Source of the DNA: an uncultured Alphaproteobacteria bacterium
GTDB lineage: Bacteria > Pseudomonadota > Alphaproteobacteria > Rs-D84 > CACZYB01
Direction of reading: 5' to 3'
Assembly: GCA_934246625.1 (NCBI GenBank)
Contig: CAKQHZ010000001.1
Location: 450,001 to 482,000 of the forward strand
DNA length: 32,000 bases
The position numbers were made by a program, and so were the translations under genes. Below the pieces are notes generated by a model. It searched no databases and was not told the origin of the DNA. It saw only the letters and a program-made list of their open reading frames with translations. This document shows, one piece after another, positions 7,178-30,315 of the stretch. Each line of letters starts with the position of its first letter. The first letter of the stretch is position 1.

Positions 7178-7299
7178 TTCTTTCTCCTTTTCTTCTATTA
7201 TAACAAAAAATCTGGGATTTAAAAGTTTTTTATACTTGAAAAGGTGATTTTCAGTTGTTATCTATATATTATATAATAACTTTATAAAGGAATTTGGAA

Positions 7300-7977
7300 A
7301 TGACAGATAAAAAATGGAAAAATAAGCATTATGAAAATACAGATGTTAAAAAAGAATCTGAGTGTGGTTGTAAGTGTGGTGAAAAATGTAATTGTGAAAA
7401 GGATAAATGTGCATCTGGAAATTGTGAATGTGGAAAGGATTGTAAGTGCCATCATGAACATCATTGCAATGATTGTGGTGAAGGTGTTGAATGTCCAGAT
7501 AATGGTTGTGAAAAGGAATTTGATAAAATTGAAAATTTAAAGGCTGAAGTTGCTTCTTGGCAAGAAAAGTATATAAGGACTTTGGCTGATTGTGAAAATG
7601 CAAAACGTCGTGCCGATATTGATGCAAAAAATATGATTGATTATAAAATCGCAAAATTTGCAAAGGATATGTTGCCTTTGGCTGATAATATTGCTTTGGC
7701 TTTGGCTTCTATTGAAGGAAAAGTTGATAGTAGTGTTATTGAAGGTTTGAAATCTATACAATCTGGTTTTATTAGCGCATTAGAAAAAAATAATATTTGC
7801 AAAATTAAAACTGTGGGTGAAAAACTTAATCCTCAGGAACATTGTGTTGTTATGCAAGTTGATGACCCAAATGTAGAAGAAGGTGTTGTTGCACGTGAGC
7901 TTCAAGCTGGTTATAAGTTGGGTGATAAGGTTATTAGAGAAGCAATGGTCGCAACTTCAAATGGAAAAAAGAACTAA
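7300..7977 (+). CDS. grpE: Nucleotide exchange factor GrpE with a roughly 70-aa Cys/His-rich (metallothionein-like) N-terminal extension
   Basis: The GrpE core is recognisable (LKAEVASWQEKYIRTLADCENAKRRADID...FAKDMLPLADNIALAL...GYKLGDKVIREAMV). I chose the ATG at 7300, which is 9 nt after AAAGG; the track start at 7294 is a TTG. The N-terminus reads ECGCKCGEKCNCEKDKCASGNCECGKDCKCHHEHHCNDCGEGVECPDNGC. Confidence 0.9.
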   Translation: MTDKKWKNKHYENTDVKKESECGCKCGEKCNCEKDKCASGNCECGKDCKCHHEHHCNDCGEGVECPDNGCEKEFDKIENLKAEVASWQEKYIRTLADCENAKRRADIDAKNMIDYKIAKFAKDMLPLADNIALALASIEGKVDSSVIEGLKSIQSGFISALEKNNICKIKTVGEKLNPQEHCVVMQVDDPNVEEGVVARELQAGYKLGDKVIREAMVATSNGKKN

Positions 7978-8332
7978 TTATTCTTTGGGTATAGAGGCAG
8001 AAGATAGAGCAAAATCGATTCTTCAAGATAAAGGTTTTGAGATATTGACTTCTCGGTATCAGGTGGGATATGGGCTTGATGCAGGAGAAGTTGATATAAT
8101 TGCAGTTGATAAGTCAAAAAAATTATTATTGTTTGTTGAAGTGAAAAAGCGAAAAACTTTGGAGCTTGCAGGAAATTCAATATTTCAATCACAAATGGAT
8201 AGAATTTATAATTCAGCAGAGGTTTTTTTATCAAAAGAACCGGCTTTTTGTGATTTTGATTGTCGATTTGATGCAGTGTTATTTGATGATAAATTTAATT
8301 ATGAATATTTAGAAAATGCATGGGGATTTTAA
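7961..8332 (+). CDS. yraN: YraN-family (UPF0102) endonuclease-like protein
   Basis: MEKRTNYSLGIEAEDRAKSILQDKGFEILTSRYQ...GEVDIIAVDKSKKLLLFVEVKKRK matches the YraN pattern (GxxAE...G...R...GE.D.I......vFVEVK.R). The internal ATG at 7961 is preferred over the track start at 7883, which lies inside grpE. Confidence 0.8.
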   Translation: MEKRTNYSLGIEAEDRAKSILQDKGFEILTSRYQVGYGLDAGEVDIIAVDKSKKLLLFVEVKKRKTLELAGNSIFQSQMDRIYNSAEVFLSKEPAFCDFDCRFDAVLFDDKFNYEYLENAWGF

Positions 8333-8338
8333 AACTTC

Positions 8339-8367
8339 TTGATTTTTAATTTAGTTTAATGTATAAA
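8339..8367 (+). promoter_or_regulatory. Putative sigma70-type promoter for tRNA-Leu
   Basis: TTGATT (8339-8344), 17-nt spacer, TATAAA (8362-8367), with TG one nt upstream of the -10. It ends 12 nt before the tRNA 5' end. Confidence 0.45.
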
Positions 8368-8379
8368 TATTCTTACTTT

Positions 8380-8464
8380 GGGAATGTGGCGGAATTGGTA
8401 GACGCGGCGGACTCAAAATCCGCTGGGGCGACCCTTGAGAGTTCGATTCTCTCCATTCCTACCA
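8380..8464 (+). tRNA. tRNA-Leu, anticodon CAA, with encoded CCA
   Basis: Hand-folded cloverleaf. Acceptor is GGGAATG/CATTCCT (first pair G-U). D arm is GCGGAATTGGTAGACGC. Anticodon stem is GCGGA/TCCGC with loop CTCAAAA (CAA at 8414-8416). There is a long variable arm, a T arm GAGAG-TTCGATT-CTCTC, discriminator A and CCA. Confidence 0.93.
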
Positions 8465-8588
8465 AACTTTTAAAGTAAAGGCGATTGCCAAACAAGGATA
8501 CAAACTTACAATTCTAAAACTCCTCACTATCGCTGTTCGTCGTTAAGAATTATTCGTGTTTGTGTTCTCTGATTCCTGCTAAATTTAG

Positions 8589-8617
8589 AATCAGCATTTT
8601 TCGGTGCTGATTTTTTT
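8589..8617 (+). terminator. Intrinsic terminator about 125 nt downstream of tRNA-Leu
   Basis: Stem AATCAGCA/TGCTGATT, loop TTTTTCGG, followed by a T run (8611-8617). Confidence 0.6.
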
Positions 8618-8710
8618 ATGAAAATTTTCTTGTTTATTTTGAAATAATATTATAAAATGGAATTAGTTTTTATAGAAATGTGAAAACTTGGGATTAATGA
8701 GGAGAAAACT

Positions 8711-9019
8711 ATGATGAAAAAATTTCTATTATTTTTTTCTATTTTATTTTGTGTATTTTTCAAAGTGAATTCTTCCGTTTATGCAACTGTAAGCAGCAAT
8801 TCTCTTGAAAAAATTCTATTTCAATATTGTGTTCCAAAAGAAGGAAATTGTGATGTAAAAGCCACATATAAAAACGGTAAATGTATTTGTCCTGGTGATA
8901 AATTATATATGGACAGAGAATGTTTTAAACCTGTTTGTCCTTCTGGAACTTATATCTATTATAGTAACGACACAGATTCTTGTGGTGCGGGAAATTACAG
9001 AACAAAAGTCAGAAATTAA
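8711..9019 (+). CDS. Small secreted cysteine-rich protein, type 1 (QYCVP..GNCD.KATY family)
   Basis: 102 aa. GAGGAG RBS sits 6 nt upstream. Signal peptide MMKKFLLFFSILFCVFFKVNSSVYA. The mature part has 7 Cys. It is a paralogue of 28694-29110. Confidence 0.8.
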   Translation: MMKKFLLFFSILFCVFFKVNSSVYATVSSNSLEKILFQYCVPKEGNCDVKATYKNGKCICPGDKLYMDRECFKPVCPSGTYIYYSNDTDSCGAGNYRTKVRN

Positions 9020-9113
9020 GTTTATGGGAGAACTACTTTCATAATTTTTGTCTGTTCTCTCTCCATTTAAAAATTTGTCTTTTATATAATAATCAAACAA
9101 AAAGGAGAAGACT

Positions 9114-10190
9114 ATGAACAATAAAAAATATATAATATCGGTAATAGGTGTGTTATCTTTTGTTGGAATTGCACACGCTGCTATTTTTCAATGCAGAACT
9201 TGTGAAGAGGGGACTTATGGTGATGGAACATCTGTAAGTTGCACAAAATGTCCGACTGGGGCAGTTTGTCCTGAGGGAACTGGAGCACCAATTTATTTAT
9301 CAAATTATAAAGATAAGTTATTATCTGTATGTGGTGAGATAGGTAAGGAAATTGCAATAGATACAGGTTTTTCTTCCAGTAATTTTGTTTCAGAAATGAT
9401 TGATAAACAAAAAGTAAAAATAAATTATAGTGGAGATATAATTAAAAAGGGAGAAAGTGGTTATAATTATGCAAGGGCATATTATGAAGTTAGTTGTTAT
9501 GATCTTGATGGTTATTATGCAAGTAGTGGATATAAAGCTATTACAGATTTTATTCAAAGCAAAATATGTAATGATGAATCAGAAGTAAAAAGTCATTTAG
9601 AACCTATGAGTTCATCATCAACTTTAACACCTGGAATATATAGGATTGATGTAGCTGGTGCCGGTGGTGGCGGTGCAGGTGGAAATGCTTGTGGATGGTG
9701 TTATGGAGCTGGTGGAGGTTATGGAGGTAATGGTGATTTGCAGACTAGATATATATATTTAGTTGATAATCAGCCTTATAATTATGTTGTTGGTGCTGGT
9801 GGTGGTAATGGTTGTGGTTCTGGTTGTAATCATCGTGGAGTAAATGGTAAGAAAGGTGGAACATCATCCTTTACTTTGTTAGGAAATGTTTTTGAGGCAT
9901 TAGGTGGAGATGGTGGAGAATCTGCACATAGTGGTTGTGATGTGTCTAATGGTAAAAATGGTGCTGCTGCTGGTAATGGTTTAGGTGGTGTTGGTGGTGA
10001 GAATAGATATGGTAACAAATGTGCTTATGATGGAAATACTGGTTGGGTAAAGATTTATCAAATTGGTATGAGAAAAACCGGTTGTCCTTCTTTAAGACCA
10101 TCTACTTCTTCTGGTGGATGTTCTTCAGGTGGTTATTTTGGCGGTTGCTCTACAGGTGGTTATTTTGGTGGTTGCTCAGGAGGATACTGA
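9114..10190 (+). CDS. Secreted protein: N-terminal cysteine-rich module (type 2) plus a glycine-rich domain and a C-terminal GGYFGGCS repeat
   Basis: 358 aa. AAGGAG RBS and signal peptide ...VGIAHA. The Cys module is FQCRTCEEGTYGDGTSVSCTKCPTGAVCPEG. The glycine-rich core is IYRIDVAGAGGGGAGG...YGAGGGYGGNG...YNYVVGAGGGNG...GKKGGTSSF...ALGGDGGES. Confidence 0.85.
   Translation: MNNKKYIISVIGVLSFVGIAHAAIFQCRTCEEGTYGDGTSVSCTKCPTGAVCPEGTGAPIYLSNYKDKLLSVCGEIGKEIAIDTGFSSSNFVSEMIDKQKVKINYSGDIIKKGESGYNYARAYYEVSCYDLDGYYASSGYKAITDFIQSKICNDESEVKSHLEPMSSSSTLTPGIYRIDVAGAGGGGAGGNACGWCYGAGGGYGGNGDLQTRYIYLVDNQPYNYVVGAGGGNGCGSGCNHRGVNGKKGGTSSFTLLGNVFEALGGDGGESAHSGCDVSNGKNGAAAGNGLGGVGGENRYGNKCAYDGNTGWVKIYQIGMRKTGCPSLRPSTSSGGCSSGGYFGGCSTGGYFGGCSGGY
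10113..10187 (+). repeat. 27-nt tandem repeat (2.8 copies) encoding GGCS(S/T)GGYF
   Basis: Units at 10113-10139, 10140-10166 and 10167-10187 (partial). They have the form ggYggWtgYtcWWca ggtggttatttt. Confidence 0.8.
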
Positions 10191-16640: not shown

Positions 16641-16689
16641 TTTTTTAGATGTAATGAATAATTACATTTAGTATCAAGTGTATAGTGAT

Positions 16690-16900
16690 ACGGAGCTTTG
16701 AACGGCTTTTTTACTTACAAGGGTATGAATTTTGTGTGATACCGTTTGGTATCTTTTTTTATACCCAAAGCCCCAACCTTTGTTGGTTGGGGAGCTGTGG
16801 TTATACAACAGGAATATAGTCTTTGCTATAGTCTAAAAGCCTCAGAGTCATTGTAAGTATGATTGTTCAACTGCCCGACCACTATCTTTGATATGTGGGT
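16690..16900 (+). promoter_or_regulatory. Candidate structured 5' leader RNA, copy A (homologous to 28455-28657)
   Basis: Outer stem GGGTAT (16721-16726)/ATACCC (16761-16766) encloses hairpin GATACC-gttt-GGTATC (16738-16753). Next comes hairpin CCCCAACC-tttgtt-GGTTGGGG (16771-16792). The conserved block TATGATT...CCCG.CCA... (16858-16899) ends in hairpin CCAC-TATC-ttt-GATA-t-GTGG, followed by a U-rich tract. Confidence 0.5.
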
Positions 16901-16924
16901 TTATTTTATTAAAGGGAGAAAAAT

Positions 16925-17491
16925 ATGAAAATCATGAACAAAAAATTACTTTTATTATATATGTCTTTATATCCTTGTATAACAAATGCAAATGTATATA
17001 TGTGTTTGCGATGTCCTGTTGGAACTTATGGTGATGGAAAATCATCATATTGTTCACCTTGTCCAAAAATAGATGGAGCACATTATTTGGAAGATTCAAA
17101 GAATTGTGAATGGGAGTGTGATGAAGGTAAAGTTGTTGTTGCAAAATATGCGAATGGTGGAGGTTGTTGCACTGAACCAGCTAAACCAAAATGTCCTTCT
17201 GTTAAAGTTTATGTTTTCGGTAACTGTTCAGGTTCGGGTTCTCATGGAGGATCTTGTCAACTTCAATATTCAAAAACTTTGGAATGTGGAGAAAGTTTTC
17301 AAAATGATGGGAGTGCGACAAATACACCAAATGGACAATATGATTGTATAACGATGGCTTGTAGAAGCGGAGGTTTTGTTAAAAATATTAATGGAGAAAT
17401 GTGGTGTTATAAAGACTCCTATGATATGAAAAAAAATAAAAATGGACGTCATTATGATAGGTCAGGTGATGCTAAATGTCTAAAAGAGTAA
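16925..17491 (+). CDS. Secreted cysteine-rich protein, type 2 (solitary copy)
   Basis: 188 aa. GGGAGA RBS and a hydrophobic N-terminus. The module YMCLRCPVGTYGDGKSSYCSPCPK aligns with the N-termini of 9114-10190 and 29218-29871. The C-terminal YDRSGDAKCL matches YDRSGFFNCL in 29218-29871. Confidence 0.8.
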   Translation: MKIMNKKLLLLYMSLYPCITNANVYMCLRCPVGTYGDGKSSYCSPCPKIDGAHYLEDSKNCEWECDEGKVVVAKYANGGGCCTEPAKPKCPSVKVYVFGNCSGSGSHGGSCQLQYSKTLECGESFQNDGSATNTPNGQYDCITMACRSGGFVKNINGEMWCYKDSYDMKKNKNGRHYDRSGDAKCLKE

Positions 17492-25904: not shown

Positions 25905-26741
25905 ATGCAAAAATTTTTTAAAAAAGTTTCTTTGATTTTTGTTTTGGGATTGGTTAGTGCTTGTTCATCTAATGTAAAACAAGATAATGTTGCTCCTCGT
26001 GTGGTGGCGGAACTTCCTGTGTTTGAATATAAGGAAACTGAAGTTATTAGCAATGATAATGACAATATAGAGCAAACAAAACAAGAAAAGTATTTTTCAA
26101 CAAAATCTGAATATGATGGAAAAATGCTTTATAAAGAAGTGGAAAAACAAGTCAAAAAAGTTGAACTAAAAAAGAAGGTGATTAAGCCTGTGTATGATAC
26201 AGAAAATCATCCTATTAGTTTAGATAAAAATCAAGTAAAGCAAGTTATTAAACAAATTTCTTCTAGTCCTGATTTTGTTGATGGTGTTGAATATAAGGAT
26301 AAAAATGTAAAGGCTTTGATGGAAAATTATCAAAATATCCTTAAAACTTCTTATAGTTGTTGTGTTGTAAATATTGCAGAAGAATTAAAGCATCGTGGAG
26401 TTTCCAAAGAAAGTATTGTTCAATTTTTAAAATTTGATGCTGAGGAATTTGCTTTGCAAAATATGTGTATTGTTGTTGATGATAGTGATATTAACGATGT
26501 TTATGGAAATAAACTTTTGACAGAGGTTGTTGCAAAATCAAAAAATAGTTGTATTTGTAATAATGCTGAATTTTTAAAACGAAATATTGATAATTTTTAT
26601 AAAATTTATAATATGAAACCTGAGTTATATAATGAAGTTTTAGTCTATAGATTTAAGGATAAAAAGGGTCGTATTGTTGAGCATGATATAAATGAAACAG
26701 TCCTTAATATTTCAACAATTTTGAACAGTTGTGTAAAGTAG
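25905..26741 (+). CDS. Lipoprotein of unknown function
   Basis: 278 aa. The lipobox-like LVSAC comes after a hydrophobic signal. AGGGGA RBS. Conserved-looking Cys pairs are present (SYSCCV, SCICNN). Confidence 0.75.
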   Translation: MQKFFKKVSLIFVLGLVSACSSNVKQDNVAPRVVAELPVFEYKETEVISNDNDNIEQTKQEKYFSTKSEYDGKMLYKEVEKQVKKVELKKKVIKPVYDTENHPISLDKNQVKQVIKQISSSPDFVDGVEYKDKNVKALMENYQNILKTSYSCCVVNIAEELKHRGVSKESIVQFLKFDAEEFALQNMCIVVDDSDINDVYGNKLLTEVVAKSKNSCICNNAEFLKRNIDNFYKIYNMKPELYNEVLVYRFKDKKGRIVEHDINETVLNISTILNSCVK

Positions 26742-26749
26742 GGGGCATT

Positions 26750-27814
26750 ATGGAAAATAGATTTTTTGATGTTGTAAATTCTATGGCCTTGGGTCAAATT
26801 GCAACTTTGTTAGATGTAAAATTATCAGATGAGTCAAAGAAAGATTTGGAAATTACTAATCTTGGCTCTCTTGAAAAAGCAGATGAGCATAGTATTATTT
26901 ACCTTGCTTTGGGTAATGCAACATCTGAACTTCTTAATAAATCTTCTGAATATAAAGAAAAATTGAAAAGTGTAAAGGCTGGGGCTTGCTTTATTTCAGA
27001 AGCTAATGTCGGTTTATTGCCTTCATCTATTGTGCCAGTTATTACAGATGACCCAAAGGGTGCATTTATCAAACTTACAAACCTTTTTTATAAGGATAAG
27101 TCTTTGCAATTTAAGGGTATTTCAAAAAATGCAGTGATTGGTGAAAATGTAAAATTTGCGGATAAAAATTCTGTGCATATTGGGGATTTTGCCGTTATTG
27201 AAGATGATGTTGAAATTGGTGAAAATTGCTATATCGCAAGTGGTGCCAAAATCAAAGTTGGTGTTGTTATGGGAAATAATTGTGTTGTTAAAGAAAATGC
27301 AGTGATTTCACATACAATGATGGGTAATAATGTTAAAATTGGTGAAGGTTCTTGTATCGGTGGCGATGGCTTTGGCTGGCATAGTGGAGCTTTCGGTCAT
27401 ATTTGGGTGCCTCAACTTGGTCGTGTTATTTTGGAAGATAATGTTGAAGTTGGTATAAACTCTTCTATTGATAGAGGTGCTTTGGACGATACAGTTATTG
27501 GCAAGGGAACAAAAATTGATAATGTGATACAAATAGGTCATAATTGTAAAATTGGAAAGAATTGTATCTTGGCAGCGATGAGTGGTGTTGCAGGTTCAAC
27601 AATAGTTGAAGATTGGGTTTTGATTGGTGCGGCGGCTGGTGTTTCTGGACATCTTAAAATAGGTGCAGGAAGCCAAATTGGTGCTGGTGCTGGTGTTATT
27701 CAAAGTCTTCCTCCTAAATCAGTGGTAAGTGGTTATCCTGCACAACCTGTTGCGGACTTTTTAAAACAAACTGCGATGTTAAGACGATTTGTTAAAAAAA
27801 GGAAAATGGATTAG
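26750..27814 (+). CDS. lpxD: UDP-3-O-acylglucosamine N-acyltransferase
   Basis: Start at MENRFFD after GGGGG. Hexapeptide (LbH) repeats run throughout, and it lies directly upstream of fabZ. Confidence 0.93.
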   Translation: MENRFFDVVNSMALGQIATLLDVKLSDESKKDLEITNLGSLEKADEHSIIYLALGNATSELLNKSSEYKEKLKSVKAGACFISEANVGLLPSSIVPVITDDPKGAFIKLTNLFYKDKSLQFKGISKNAVIGENVKFADKNSVHIGDFAVIEDDVEIGENCYIASGAKIKVGVVMGNNCVVKENAVISHTMMGNNVKIGEGSCIGGDGFGWHSGAFGHIWVPQLGRVILEDNVEVGINSSIDRGALDDTVIGKGTKIDNVIQIGHNCKIGKNCILAAMSGVAGSTIVEDWVLIGAAAGVSGHLKIGAGSQIGAGAGVIQSLPPKSVVSGYPAQPVADFLKQTAMLRRFVKKRKMD

Positions 27815-27887: not shown

Positions 27888-28343
27888 ATGGAAAAAAATG
27901 TATTATATATTGATGATATAAAAAAGATATTGCCACACAGATATCCTTTTTTGCTTGTTGATAGAGTTATTGATATTGTGCCTGGACAATCTGGAACAGG
28001 TATTAAAAATGTAACAGTTAATGAAGAATTTTTTAATGGACATTTTCCTTCTTCTCCTGTGATGCCTGGGGTTTTAATGTTGGAAGCAATGGCTCAAACA
28101 GCGGTGCTTGTTGGTGCAACAGATGAAACTGAGGAATTAAAGGGACAAATCGTATTTTTAACAGGAATTGATGATGCAAAATTTAAAAATAGAGTTATTC
28201 CTGGTGATCAACTTCATATCAAAGTTGAAAAATGTTCACAAAGAGGTGCTTTTGAAAAATGGAAAGCTGCAATCTATGTTGATGACAAACTTTGTGTATC
28301 TGCAACTTTGAGTGCTATGAAATCAGGTAAAACAAAGGTTTAA
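27888..28343 (+). CDS. fabZ: 3-hydroxyacyl-ACP dehydratase FabZ
   Basis: 151 aa. Contains ILPHRYPFLLVDRV, FFNGHFP..PVMPGVL and EAMAQ. Confidence 0.96.
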   Translation: MEKNVLYIDDIKKILPHRYPFLLVDRVIDIVPGQSGTGIKNVTVNEEFFNGHFPSSPVMPGVLMLEAMAQTAVLVGATDETEELKGQIVFLTGIDDAKFKNRVIPGDQLHIKVEKCSQRGAFEKWKAAIYVDDKLCVSATLSAMKSGKTKV

Positions 28344-28371
28344 ATTTTTATTATTTCAGTTATTAAAGAAG

Positions 28372-28398
28372 GGTGTTAATTTTTTAACACCTTTTTTT
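28372..28398 (+). terminator. Intrinsic terminator of fabZ
   Basis: Stem GGTGTTAA/TTAACACC, loop TTTT, then T7. Confidence 0.8.
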
Positions 28399-28399
28399 G

Positions 28400-28428
28400 T
28401 TGCTTAAATCTTTATTATGTAATATCAT
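28400..28428 (+). promoter_or_regulatory. Putative promoter driving leader copy B
   Basis: TTGCTT (28400-28405), 17-nt spacer, TATCAT (28423-28428). It sits just after a terminator, like the copy A promoter. Confidence 0.3.
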
Positions 28429-28454
28429 AAAATTAGATTTGGATTTATCCAAGT

Positions 28455-28657
28455 TTAGCGTCCATAGGTGGACGTGGGACTGTCGTAAGTTCTTTATATA
28501 CTGCCGTATGTTATTTTACATACGATCTTTGTCCCCACCTTTAGTGGGGAGTCTTTGGTGTATGTCCAGAGGATATTTTTATATTCTTAAAGACCAAGGA
28601 AATCATCTTGCAGTATATATGATTTACGAACTCCCCGCCATTTATGTGATAAATGGG
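28455..28657 (+). promoter_or_regulatory. Candidate structured 5' leader RNA, copy B (homologous to 16690-16900)
   Basis: Hairpin CGTCCA-tagg-TGGACG (28459-28474). Outer stem GGGAC (28476-28480)/GTCCC (28531-28535) encloses CGTATGT-tatttt-ACATACG (28505-28524). Then hairpin CCCCAC-cttta-GTGGGG (28533-28549). The conserved block at 28618-28657 ends in the perfect hairpin CCATTTAT-gtg-ATAAATGG. Confidence 0.5.
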
Positions 28658-28693
28658 AAAAATTTTGTGATACACAAAAAAGGGGAAGAAACC

Positions 28694-29110
28694 ATGAAAA
28701 ACTTATCTAAAGTACTTTGTATTTGTGCGGGGGCTATCTCGGCAAATCCTATTAACCTTCAGGCTAAAACTTTGCTTGAAACCTTGACTCAATACTGTGT
28801 TCCGACGGTTGGCAACTGCGACAAAAAGGCTACCTACAATACCTCTGGCAACTATTGCGATTGTGCCAACATCAACAAATTCTATAACTCTTCGAATCGT
28901 TCTTGCGAGAACTGTATCCTCGGCTCTTTCGCAACCTCAGACTATAAAACTTGTGAGCCTATTCATTGCCCTGACGGCTATGTTGCGACTTTGATTTCCA
29001 AAGGGGCGTGTCCAGATGGCTATACTTTGCAACAAATCAATGTGGCTTCGGGTTGTGGCGAGGGTTATGCGTTGAAGAAGTATAATCCGGCGACGAAGAG
29101 TTTTAATTAA
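28694..29110 (+). CDS. Small secreted cysteine-rich protein, type 1 (QYCVP..GNCD.KATY family), higher-GC copy
   Basis: ATG at 28694 after AGGGGAAG. Signal peptide MKNLSKVLCICAGAISANPINLQA. LTQYCVPTVGNCDKKATYNTSGNYCDC aligns with LFQYCVPKEGNCDVKATYKNGKCIC of 8711-9019. Confidence 0.8.
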   Translation: MKNLSKVLCICAGAISANPINLQAKTLLETLTQYCVPTVGNCDKKATYNTSGNYCDCANINKFYNSSNRSCENCILGSFATSDYKTCEPIHCPDGYVATLISKGACPDGYTLQQINVASGCGEGYALKKYNPATKSFN

Positions 29111-29217
29111 AGATATGGGCGGGAGTTTTTTATCATAGTCTTGCTTCCGCCCTCCCAGATTGGCACTTTTGAAGAGGGGGAGGTGTCAAGGAAGAAACAC
29201 CCTCGAAGGAGAAAAAA

Positions 29218-29871
29218 ATGAAAACCATGAAGAAAAAGAAATTAGCGGTGATAGGGATAGCGGGAATGCTCTCTGCAACACCTGCCTCCGCTCAAACATT
29301 TTATCAATGTATGCCTGTAAAGTGTAAAGCAGGAGAGTATGTAAGTGGAAGTAGTTGTGAGCGTTGCACTGGAGGTTATCGTTGTCCAGGAGATAATAAA
29401 AGGTATGCGTGCACAGGCGAATGGGAATATGCAACACCAGGAAGTTCATACTGCTCTACCTTTGGCCCAAGTGATGTTCGTATTTGGGTTGGTGGTGGCT
29501 GTGCTGATAGAGATAGAAACGATCAAGCTCTAATGTCTAAGTTAGTGCCAATTACATCTTTTTCTACAAAGAAGGAAAATGGTCAAACAAAATATATTAC
29601 AAACTTTAGTATTCTATCAGACAGAAACAAATATGATAGATCAGGTTTCTTTAATTGTTTAGATAATAATTTTAAAAAAAAATATACTTCACAAGAACAA
29701 TGGTGTAAATATGCAAGTATTACTCTTTTAACAACTCCAAATGCTGGTGGTTCATCAGACTTTACCGTAAAACAATATAGTAAAGTATATGGAACGTTAG
29801 AGTTTCGATCTAGTTTTGAGTGTTTAAGATTAGGTCCAGGCGGTGGTTGTGCAAATAAATGTAATAATTAA
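29218..29871 (+). CDS. Secreted cysteine-rich protein, type 2; compositionally chimeric
   Basis: 217 aa. GGAG RBS and signal peptide ...SATPASA. The module YQCMPVKCKAGEYVSGSSCERCTGGYRCPGD aligns with the other type-2 N-termini. G+C drops sharply near 29520. Confidence 0.8.
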   Translation: MKTMKKKKLAVIGIAGMLSATPASAQTFYQCMPVKCKAGEYVSGSSCERCTGGYRCPGDNKRYACTGEWEYATPGSSYCSTFGPSDVRIWVGGGCADRDRNDQALMSKLVPITSFSTKKENGQTKYITNFSILSDRNKYDRSGFFNCLDNNFKKKYTSQEQWCKYASITLLTTPNAGGSSDFTVKQYSKVYGTLEFRSSFECLRLGPGGGCANKCNN

Positions 29872-29877
29872 AAAAAA

Positions 29878-29899
29878 GCCCTCAAATGAGGGCCTTTTT
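29878..29899. terminator. Bidirectional terminator between convergent genes
   Basis: Stem GCCCTC-aaat-GAGGGC, flanked by A8 upstream and CTTTTT downstream. Confidence 0.65.
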
Positions 29900-29910: not shown

Positions 29911-30315
29911 TTATTCCCAACCTGATGTATCGCTTAGACCACCGTATGTTTGTTGGATATTGTTTTTACCTTCTGGGTCAGCCATATATGATACGATAAA
30001 GCCAGCAACTCCAAGAAGAACAAGTGCAACGATTAACATAAATAATTTTTTCCAGTCAATGTCTCCTTTTTCGATAGCATTCCATGCATATCCTAAAAAT
30101 GCAACAGCAGCAACAACGAATAATGCATTTCTTGTATATGCGAATAGTTGGCTTCCACGTTGTAAGAATCTTTCAAAAGGACCAGTTTTTCCGGTTGTTA
30201 CAATCTCACTTCCAGTTTGTGCAAGAACATCAACAGGAACCATAAACATAAATGCAACTAAAATACCAAGACATACAAGTGTAGATTTTTTAGTTAAAAA
30301 TTTGAATATTGACAT
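29911..30315 (-). CDS. Small membrane protein with VirB2/TrbC-pilin-like architecture (assignment tentative)
   Basis: 134 aa. AGGAG RBS. A long signal-like N-terminus ends VDVLA|QTGSE. A hydrophilic stretch is followed by two hydrophobic helices separated by a short charged loop (FVVAAVAFLGYAWNAIEKGDIDWKKLFMLIVALVLLGVAGFIVSYM). Confidence 0.7.
   Translation of the reverse strand: MSIFKFLTKKSTLVCLGILVAFMFMVPVDVLAQTGSEIVTTGKTGPFERFLQRGSQLFAYTRNALFVVAAVAFLGYAWNAIEKGDIDWKKLFMLIVALVLLGVAGFIVSYMADPEGKNNIQQTYGGLSDTSGWE

Follow-up and report, generated by a model that had tools for sequence, protein, structure and literature searches.

The locus described here lies 3' of fabZ in a 32,000-nt stretch of DNA from an uncultured gut alphaproteobacterium (contig CAKQHZ010000001.1, positions 450,001 to 482,000), referred to below as the window; all coordinates are those of the window unless another locus is named. 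It carries a two-gene module, consisting of gene A and gene B, whose front part is unusually rich in G+C (guanine plus cytosine). A first-pass annotation, made from the sequence alone, had described positions 28440-29520 as a recent transfer or recombination patch that ends inside a gene and breaks the fabZ-lpxA synteny. The order of elements is lpxD (26729-27814), fabZ (27888-28343), a terminator-like palindrome, a 300-nt non-coding leader, gene A, a spacer, gene B and a convergent pilin gene. The features of the module and of its relatives within the window are as follows.

28372..28397, no strand: terminator-like palindrome of fabZ (GGTGTTAA..TTAACACC) followed by a T-run (sequence read, terminator scan)
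28420..28425, forward: -10-like box TAATAT (TATAAT in relatives), directly 5' of the leader (conserved alignment columns)
28429..28673, forward: structured 5' leader RNA of ~245 nt (folding, covariation, covariance model)
28677..29255, forward: multi-copy head, reaching ~29315 with small in-frame indels (blastn, alignment, variant table)
28682..28688, forward: Shine-Dalgarno sequence GGGGAAG of gene A (sequence, leader alignments)
28694..29110, forward: gene A (A*), encoding a secreted Cys-rich protein of 138 aa with a signal peptide ending ..NLQA/K
29117..29152, forward: intercistronic hairpin, GGGCGGGAG - 18-nt loop with UCAUAGUCUU - CUUCCGCCC, then UCCC (fold, spacers compared)
29218-29871, forward: gene B, 217 aa
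29218..29292, forward: gene B signal peptide (MKTMKKKKLAVIGIAG..ASA/Q), G+C at third codon positions (GC3) 0.43, common to all head-bearing modules
29293..29478, forward: gene B N-terminal Cys/Gly-rich domain, semi-conserved, ~90% DNA identity to the gene B at the dsbA site
29479..29871, forward: gene B C-terminal domain including the stop codon, Asn/Lys-rich, hypervariable, specific to the fabZ site
29872..29899, no strand: terminator-like hairpin common to gene B and the convergent pilin gene (terminator scan)
29911-30315, reverse: TrbC/VirB2-like pilin gene, convergent
8711..10190, forward: divergent module with A-like (8711-9019) and B-like (9114-10190) genes, GC3 0.17 and 0.12
16641..16915, forward: second, divergent leader RNA, preceding a lone B-like gene at 16925-17491 (43.7 bits, E ~5e-9)

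The palindrome at 28372..28397 marks the end of the lpxD-fabZ unit. The -10-like box is preceded by a weak -35 element, TTGTTG, at 17-nt spacing and would be the putative promoter of the module; the consensus promoter scan did not list it. A listed 237-aa open reading frame (ORF) starting at 28397 was rejected as spurious, since it reads through the RNA leader. The divergent module at 8711..10190 has host-typical composition and was used as an internal control.

The G+C content of the whole window is 32.6%. In sliding windows it is 0.40-0.456 across ~28500-29500 and does not exceed 0.40 in the rest of the window. The peak 500-nt window of the tract reaches 0.456, against a background mean of 0.316 (standard deviation 0.038, maximum 0.418) for 2673 overlapping windows of that size, drawn from ~150 kb of the species after masking of the module copies; the elevation is greater than chance. 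Recomputation of the G+C of the 60-nt blocks given in the first-pass annotation returned the same values (38, 50, 38, 48, 43 and 53%; 42, 42, 43, 50 and 47%; 32, 25 and 18%; infB, 37%), and only the lipoprotein-gene block at 26101-26160 differed, with 27% instead of 25%. The peptide block QYCVP..GNCD, cited there as encoded differently in two places, was located at ~28790-28822 and ~8822-8854 with the codon differences as quoted.

The G+C expected of each codon, given its amino acid, was computed with the codon usage of the window itself as reference. In gene A, the observed value is 0.435 and the expected value 0.337 (excess 0.098, z = 9.1); in all other genes, the excess is no more than +0.03. 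Gene B gives z = 2.4 for codons 1-37, 1.7 for codons 38-87 and -1.9 for codons 88-217. Unusual codon choice is limited to ~28720-29280, a span that holds gene A, the spacer behind it and ~30 codons at the start of gene B. The view that the shift lies in codon choice and not in amino-acid content is thus correct for gene A and weakly so for gene B codons 1-30 (z = 2.7), but it fails from ~29280 onward, where observed G+C equals expected (z between -2 and +1.7). The left edge had been misplaced at 28440: positions 28440-28693 (37.8% G+C) belong to the structured RNA leader, outside the codon-anomalous tract. The right edge had been set at 29520, where amino-acid-expected G+C drops through 0.49, 0.30 and 0.24, and the G+C of first and second codon positions declines from 0.53 to 0.36. 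Since the expected G+C alone drops there, this is an amino-acid boundary, namely the change from the Gly/Cys/Ala/Pro-rich N-domain to the Asn/Lys-rich C-domain of gene B, and the boundary of codon usage lies near 29260-29320. The high G+C of the gene B N-domain is explained by its amino-acid content.

The GC3 of gene A is 0.47, versus 0.085-0.29 in the other ORFs of at least 100 aa (139 scanned, ~150 kb); one further ORF at 0.44 is antisense and probably spurious. Copies of gene A have GC3 values of 0.38-0.475, the lowest belonging to the mosaic copy of L103 (L numbers designate fetched loci, P numbers proteins). The A-B spacer, 107 nt long, has 47.7% G+C versus 16-35% in other intergenic regions. 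Observed-minus-expected profiles show that the codon-level excess follows the shared pieces in all ten modules examined, so that L101 has an excess in its head-type gene B start and none in its native-type gene A. GC3 appears graded by the degree of sharing among copies: the fully shared head has 0.43-0.48, segments common to two or three copies have 0.22-0.25, and unique sequence has 0.13-0.20.

The head is a segment of ~0.6 kb that takes in gene A with its ribosome-binding site, the spacer and the opening 13-30 codons of gene B. It is found in near-identical form at no fewer than five chromosomal sites and across strains, and all downstream sequence differs by site and strain. By blastn and alignment, the shared segment extends over 28677-29255 and, with small in-frame indels, to ~29315; the dsbA-site copy is ~90% identical up to 29478. 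Assembly ERZ4559405 encodes the exact protein A at four unrelated sites, on contigs with 52-55x coverage: downstream of an RNase E/G-family gene ('rne'), of mltA, of dsbA and of a gene with an Mtd_N domain. The fifth head site, fabZ, is found in other assemblies (window, L087, L097 and L105). Two further sites, beside a glycosyltransferase gene and beside recR, hold mosaic or native-composition versions, which brings the module sites in the species to at least seven. The offset of the gene B start is constant at every head site, and at the four sites of ERZ4559405 the length of the product is 218-245 aa.

Seven head copies differ only by a 1-nt indel and four linked synonymous single-nucleotide polymorphisms (SNPs). 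The four SNPs sort by assembly: all four sites of ERZ4559405 have one haplotype, and the window, L004 and L005 have the other. L001/L005 and L003/L004 are orthologous sites, yet the haplotypes follow the assembly. Paralogous heads within a genome are therefore more alike than orthologous sites between strains or species. Many metagenomic contigs, including those of related species, stop within the module or just ahead of it, as would be predicted for genomes that also have several heads; the contigs of L007, L008 and L010 end 480-840 bp after fabZ. In the sister species, L110 3779-7384 contains two complete tandem modules, each with leader, A and B, and only the first gene A has elevated GC3 (0.54 vs. 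0.34).

Near-identical strains differ sharply at the module. At the dsbA site, the flanks of L101 and L003 are 99.4% and 99.8% identical, and the alignable part of the module is ~77% identical. Gene A of L101 encodes 212 aa and has native composition (GC3 0.21), while L003 has a GC-rich gene A at the same site; in L101, the native-composition gene A is combined with a head-type spacer and gene B start. At the mltA site, L102 and L002 share 99.2% identity over the 7.6 kb that lead up to the module, after which the two sequences are unrelated (gyrB vs. fba), synteny being lost within the module at ~8646 in L102 and ~10634 in L002. Repeated heads seem, from such breakpoints, to act as chromosomal rearrangement points. 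At the fabZ site, the window and L105 have 99.5% identical flanks, and the leader, gene A and the gene B start are 98-100% identical, with the exception of the 28800-28899 bin, where a 21-nt indel of the P0001-like 145-aa gene A of L105 lowers identity to 91%.

Mosaic proteins were also found. P0002 joins a native N-terminus to a head-type C-terminus, and the gene for P0001 contains an AT-rich 13-codon block within GC-rich sequence. The edges of the shared tract vary, being at -19, -81 and ~-130 on the left and from 29255 to 29478 on the right. The description as a recombination patch ending inside a gene is hence retained as far as a recombining segment with its right edge within gene B is concerned, and it does not extend to recent foreign transfer. 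No recombinase adjoins any fetched module; the sole integrase-family gene, in L103, lies ~1.7 kb upstream, behind two genes. Shufflon-type or site-specific inversion was rejected, given that there is no adjoining recombinase and that most copies have their own leader and ribosome-binding site. P0006 (155 aa, on a 10-kb ENA contig) joins the first ~92 residues of protein A to the last ~60 residues of a fabZ-site B protein, and represents either an allele with a deletion or a chimera made during assembly.

Genes for the exact 138-aa protein A were found on 19 contigs. Differences among these copies are all synonymous, including 13 in L095, and, judged from this pattern, protein A is under strict purifying selection. 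The A family amounts to 76 clusters among 1.84 billion representatives. Pfam, NCBIfam, PADLOC and PDB sequence searches returned no match for protein A, and no relative was found in the GTDB representative genomes, from which the family is absent or in which it is unassembled. A scan of JGI metagenomes with the A-family profile gave two short contigs only, and no published description of the A/B family was found in the literature. The nearest relatives of protein A are same-species paralogues with 59-69% identity, and the best match outside the species has 55% amino-acid identity, with nothing closer outside the species among 5.8 billion proteins. Protein A belongs to a lineage-restricted orphan family and, by sequence similarity, is nested within the species' own paralogue family.

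The codon usage of gene A is distinctive. GCG accounts for 42% of its codon set versus 6% in the host and CCG for 33% versus 2%, and the group GCG/CCG/TCG/ACG stands at 18-42% versus 2-6%. A-ending codons make up 12% in gene A and 35% in the host; C-ending codons are raised (C at third positions, C3, 0.26 vs. 0.09). Host genes that are usually highly expressed have GC3 values of 0.16 (rpsD), 0.17 (rpmJ) and 0.17 (porin gene), and infB, nusA and a ClpP-like gene have 0.17-0.22. Gene A as a translationally selected, highly expressed gene was rejected, its codon preference being unlike that of rpsD, rpmJ and the porin gene. The public gene call on the window's own scaffold (L087 9345-9893, equal to window 28562-29110) gives gene A 182 aa, with the start inside the leader RNA. 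At other loci, gene A is called as 138 aa, and the 182-aa call probably has an over-extended start.

Gene B is a mosaic, as far as its sequence matches go. Its first ~87 codons are ~90% DNA-identical to the B gene of the dsbA site (L003/L004), and the remainder has DNA matches only in fabZ-site copies of other strains. Between the window and L105, the tail (29400-29870) is 81-90% identical versus 99.5% in the flanks. The ratio of non-synonymous to synonymous substitution rates (dN/dS) in the tail is 0.77-1.87 versus 0.24-0.42 in the first 90 codons, and the changes cluster in loops separated by blocks of identical DNA. The C-terminal half, which had been called native, is so in its composition, but it is hypervariable between strains. 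Gene B proteins at one site differ strongly between conspecific strains (e.g., 56% identity at the Mtd_N site), the C-terminal domains are unrelated from site to site, and the B family has at least 50 clusters at 90% identity in public data.

The N-terminal region of several B proteins matches Pfam PF07699 (Ephrin_rec_like; cut-off 23.1): L102 B with 27.5 bits, L006 B with 25.1 bits and the L001 gene at 17496 with 33.2 bits; the window's own gene B has no PF07699 match. The B-like paralogue at 9114-10190 narrowly misses the cut-off of Pfam Gly_rich_2, and a precomputed PF21722 hit is on record for P0054. For protein B, no match was obtained in PADLOC, NCBIfam or PDB sequence searches, and no toxin or defence domain was detected. 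Glycine-rich C-terminal regions with GxGGGG runs occur in some members (window 9114-10190, forward strand; L101 4750-5475; L099 4529-5359), and a Cys-rich N-domain combined with a glycine-rich domain is an unusual architecture for a bacterium.

A diversity-generating retroelement was considered as the source of tail variation and rejected, since the substitutions hit all four bases and all codon positions, without adenine specificity, and no second tail copy is present in the fetched DNA. No reverse-transcriptase domain was found in the precomputed Pfam hits for the called genes of the fetched loci, the other ORFs of the window not having been scanned. No cassettes that could serve as silent donors for the B tail were found in the 1.17 Mb of fetched loci. 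In L006, a gene immediately upstream of a module (8234-9364, reverse strand) encodes a 376-aa protein with an Mtd_N domain, the N-terminal part of the tropism determinant of a Bordetella phage; its surroundings showed no reverse transcriptase.

The leader region 28400-28700 folds with a minimum free energy of -95.4 kcal/mol versus -63.5 ± 4.8 kcal/mol in shuffled sequences (z = -6.7). The fold is a multi-helix junction with the invariant single-stranded blocks GUAUGUYCAGAG, CUUAAAG, GUCAUC and AACUCCCCG. Leaders from the fabZ site of six species and from a paralogous site align with long invariant blocks. RNAalifold on this seven-sequence MAFFT alignment predicted 51 pairs, 21 of them compensatory; 93.5% of alignment cells were paired, compared with 84.0% in shuffles and 30-52% when the partners were slid, and the covariation score was 0.42 versus 0.07-0.14 in controls. 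In a 15-sequence alignment, 36 of the 51 pairs were changed on both sides, and 92.3% of cells were paired versus 74.2% in shuffles; this alignment was fitted to the model and so leans towards structure.

The covariance model detected leaders of the close type in six species and at paralogous sites (193-252 bits) and of a divergent type (29-70 bits) at the rne, mltA and dsbA sites and in the sister species. Full-length matches lie upstream of most modules tested; leader positions include L006 9742-9980, ~6520-6810 in L007-L010 and L015, and L110 3474-3758 and 5440-5737. No leader was detected by the model at the L099 and L103 modules or upstream of window position 8711. The leader had no match among the 4227 models of Rfam 15, even at E up to 5, and an Rfam gathering scan of the window with an E-value scan of 28330-29260 gave one tRNA and one chance hit only. 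The leader is thus a previously undescribed structured RNA and a candidate new cis-regulatory RNA. Within the fold, the invariant AACUCCCCG has CGGG as its pairing partner; it also complements GGGGAAG, the Shine-Dalgarno sequence of gene A. UCCCC is hence a candidate anti-Shine-Dalgarno sequence, from which a translational switch can reasonably be inferred.

The hairpin between genes A and B recurs in modules of normal G+C, where the stems differ in sequence yet remain complementary (six spacers, read by eye). MAFFT misaligned the stems for RNAalifold, and stem complementarity was taken from direct reading. The hairpin is species-specific, yet identical between paralogous modules of one species, including the sister species, and the UCAUAGUCUU-like loop motif and trailing UCCC are conserved between modules. 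Spacers with the hairpin are located as follows.

Window: 29117-29152 and 9020-9113
L099: 4418-4528
L009: 7219-7426
L015: 7135-7222
L001: 17391-17495

Taken together, we consider, with a probability of about 70%, that the tract is the constant head of a dispersed family of two-gene secreted-protein modules, homogenised by gene conversion, and not a foreign insert. Each module would comprise a promoter, the ~245-nt leader RNA, gene A, a hairpin-bearing spacer and gene B, the last encoding an unvarying signal peptide, then a Cys-rich N-domain and finally a C-terminal domain that varies. Gene conversion between paralogous modules, with allelic exchange between strains, would keep the heads alike, and the same recombination would yield mosaics and occasional rearrangements. 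The G+C excess of the head would be sustained by a persistent force against the AT pressure of the genome. The module would encode a diversifying set of secreted or surface proteins, the leader probably controlling expression by sequestering the UCCCC anti-Shine-Dalgarno sequence.

Several observations weigh against this interpretation. More than one head per genome was seen in a single assembly only (ERZ4559405); short-read de Bruijn assemblers can collapse near-identical repeats, so that the 100% identity of copies may be overstated, and contigs break inside the head (L088, L096, L097 and L107). At the dsbA site, replacement of the whole module brings a unique gene B, and strain exchange must therefore contribute besides intragenomic conversion. 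The direction of the GC/AT differences is unpolarised, and rare head variants are mostly GC-to-AT, which fits any GC-rich sequence out of equilibrium and not biased conversion specifically. The homologue P0132 of the sister species (GCA_964530355) lies mid-contig and may be single-copy, which would favour selection over conversion bias. AlphaFold models have a mean predicted local distance difference test score (pLDDT) of 34.7 for protein A (seven-sequence alignment) and 34.8 for protein B (18 sequences); at pLDDT ~35 the models are unusable.

As for the cause of the high G+C, a GC-biased outcome of conversion is ranked first, ahead of selection and then of import from within the clade, though we would give it somewhat less than even odds. 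The excess at synonymous sites is co-extensive with the converted tract (10 modules). At amino acids shared by gene A and a native paralogue, 28 differences have GC in gene A and five the reverse, the counts being unpolarised. P0132 also has high GC3 (0.54 vs. 0.26-0.41 in neighbouring genes) and C3 (0.30 vs. 0.13), which suggests that this A subfamily is subject to a lasting force. RNA structure was rejected as the cause, with z = -0.05 for 28677-29260 and -1.6 for the spacer. The G+C of the spacer follows from its hairpin, which is kept in native-composition modules with different complementary stems.

Selection on synonymous sites or on the mRNA of gene A, acting through translation, stability or avoidance of AU-rich cleavage, with multi-copy identity as a separate matter, is the strongest competitor, although an unlikely one at perhaps one chance in four or five. 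The enrichment of C-ending codons in both gene A and the sister homologue would agree with it, as would the strict constraint on protein A, whose copies differ only synonymously, and the possible single-copy state of that homologue. However, the bias is missing from rpsD, rpmJ, the porin gene, infB, nusA and the ClpP-like gene, and NCG and G-ending codons are raised as well, unlike in classical translational selection. The excess also extends into the first 30 codons of gene B, even beside the native gene A of L101, and the head RNA is no more structured than shuffled controls.

Slightly less probable again is import within the clade, by which the GC-rich gene A arose in, or came from, a GC-richer clade member and was spread by gene conversion, its G+C now decaying. 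The clade ranges over ~28-40% G+C in the fetched loci, conspecific strains carry either the GC-rich or the native gene A at one site, and both the mostly GC-to-AT rare variants and the AT-rich block embedded in the P0001 variant would be in line with decay. Yet a genome-wide GC3 of 0.47 is not reached by any fetched relative, and the protein searches yielded nothing closer that could stand for a donor. P0132, at 55% identity, lies ~0.19 above the GC3 of its own genome, so that high GC3 looks like a property of the subfamily and not of a donor genome.

Recent horizontal transfer into the position downstream of fabZ, with displacement of lpxA, is close to excluded. The atypical composition and the lack of lpxA after fabZ in the window speak for it, but a module of leader, A-like and B-like genes is found 3' of fabZ in five other species of the clade (L007, L009, L010, L015 and, inverted, L017), with host-like composition. 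The closest relatives of protein A are same-species paralogues, and the sister-species homologue is itself GC3-rich. Blastn of the head against phage and plasmid collections gave no match; no credible flanking direct repeats or target-site duplications were found around the tract, and the only tRNA in the window is at 8380, none being near the tract. The neighbouring genes are fabZ, the virB2-like gene and a TsaD-family (PF00814) gene, with no mobility genes among them. A horizontally acquired island was accordingly rejected: the composition is atypical, but the site is not empty in relatives, and neither mobility signatures nor a donor homologue were found.

The position of lpxA was traced with the N-terminus of the species' LpxA-like protein (L001/L005, Hexapep + Acetyltransf_11) against every fetched locus. 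Matches directly after fabZ were obtained in distant proteobacterial loci (Massilia, Herbaspirillum and others) and in none of the fetched loci of the gut alphaproteobacterial clade, including the module-less L011, L012 and L016. In this species, lpxA is located elsewhere, in L001/L005. The supposed break in fabZ-lpxA synteny is thus not attributable to the module, as lpxA is separate from fabZ in all fetched clade loci with or without it. Since the module follows fabZ in relatives and lpxA lies apart clade-wide, the module is old at the fabZ site and did not displace lpxA.

The weakest alternative, that there is no real anomaly but only Gly/Cys/Ala/Pro-rich proteins or a metagenomic mis-assembly or chimera, explains the G+C of the entire 29280-29520 segment as well as the fall that follows and is valid for the gene B N-domain, but it is excluded for gene A by the z = 9.1 excess over amino-acid expectation and is scarcely credible as a whole, the arrangement recurring in at least ten independent assemblies at consistent sites and the window being 100% identical to a 540-kb scaffold.

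If the tract is a homogenised head, known systems offer partial parallels. The vsp genes of Mycoplasma bovis, vlp of M. hyorhinis and vsa of M. pulmonis are variable surface protein families with a conserved 5' region. Common to these and to the A/B modules are many paralogues, a near-identical upstream region and signal peptide, divergent mature regions and strain variation. Differences are a Sec signal peptide without a lipobox, the constant gene A upstream and a full leader of its own at most copies; neither a variable region of tandem repeats nor an adjacent site-specific recombinase nor a single expression site was observed, and there is no sequence homology. The modules resemble variable surface or secreted repertoires with a conserved 5' region by analogy only. 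In polymorphic toxin and contact-dependent inhibition loci, a constant N-terminus is joined to a swappable C-terminus. The modules are similar in their constant secretion-related front, highly variable C-terminal domains and tails reassorted by recombination in the constant part. Unlike polymorphic toxins, the products are small (~200-250 aa) Sec-secreted Cys-rich proteins, gene B is followed by convergent housekeeping genes instead of an immunity gene, and no toxin or defence domain accompanies them.

Concerted evolution of bacterial paralogues by gene conversion is known for rRNA operons and tufA/tufB. The modules share with these the greater likeness of within-genome paralogues than of orthologous sites, the variable tract ends and the mosaics; they differ in that only the head of the unit is homogenised while the tails diversify, in the strong compositional signature and in being a non-essential family of a single lineage. 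An association between recombination and G+C has been reported in bacteria. As in GC-biased conversion, the G+C excess here coincides with the converted tract and affects synonymous positions; the head substitutions are, however, unpolarised, and a GC3 increase of +0.26 would be unusually large for a bacterium. GC-biased gene conversion is described in mammalian X-chromosome palindromes (PMC8981503). The leader resembles riboswitch-like leaders in being a 5' untranslated region with a multi-helix junction, strong covariation, invariant unpaired nucleotides and a possible anti-Shine-Dalgarno sequence. It differs from the Rfam riboswitch families in matching no Rfam model and in being restricted so far to the A/B gene family.

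A more far-reaching proposal, in which recombination drives G+C enrichment (GC3 0.47 in a 0.21 genome) and a new class of leader RNA, possibly a riboswitch, gates a Cys-rich hypervariable repertoire, is speculative, and we regard it as improbable in its full form. If true, it would provide an unusually clean intragenomic case of recombination-driven G+C enrichment in an AT-rich bacterium, and a hypervariable, eukaryote-like repertoire of Cys-rich secreted proteins of an uncultured gut symbiont would be under leader control. Whether recombination raises bacterial G+C is debated, and the locus is a natural test case, offering heads at paralogous sites, paralogues of native composition within one genome and, in near-identical strains, converted as well as unconverted alleles of one site. 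Composition-based island callers would flag the tract as foreign, where an endogenous recombining repeat is the preferred explanation, and the distinction matters for calls of horizontal transfer in metagenome-assembled genomes. The modules are suggestive of a regulated diversity of surface or secreted proteins, whose target may be a host, a protist or a phage. In practical terms, the head repeat breaks short-read assemblies, and related assembled genomes end right after fabZ.

Elsewhere in the window, positions 7294-7977 (forward strand) encode a GrpE-like protein with an N-terminal extension of ~70 residues very rich in Cys and His (CGCKCGEKCNCEKDKC..CKCHHEHHC), which is metallothionein-like in appearance.

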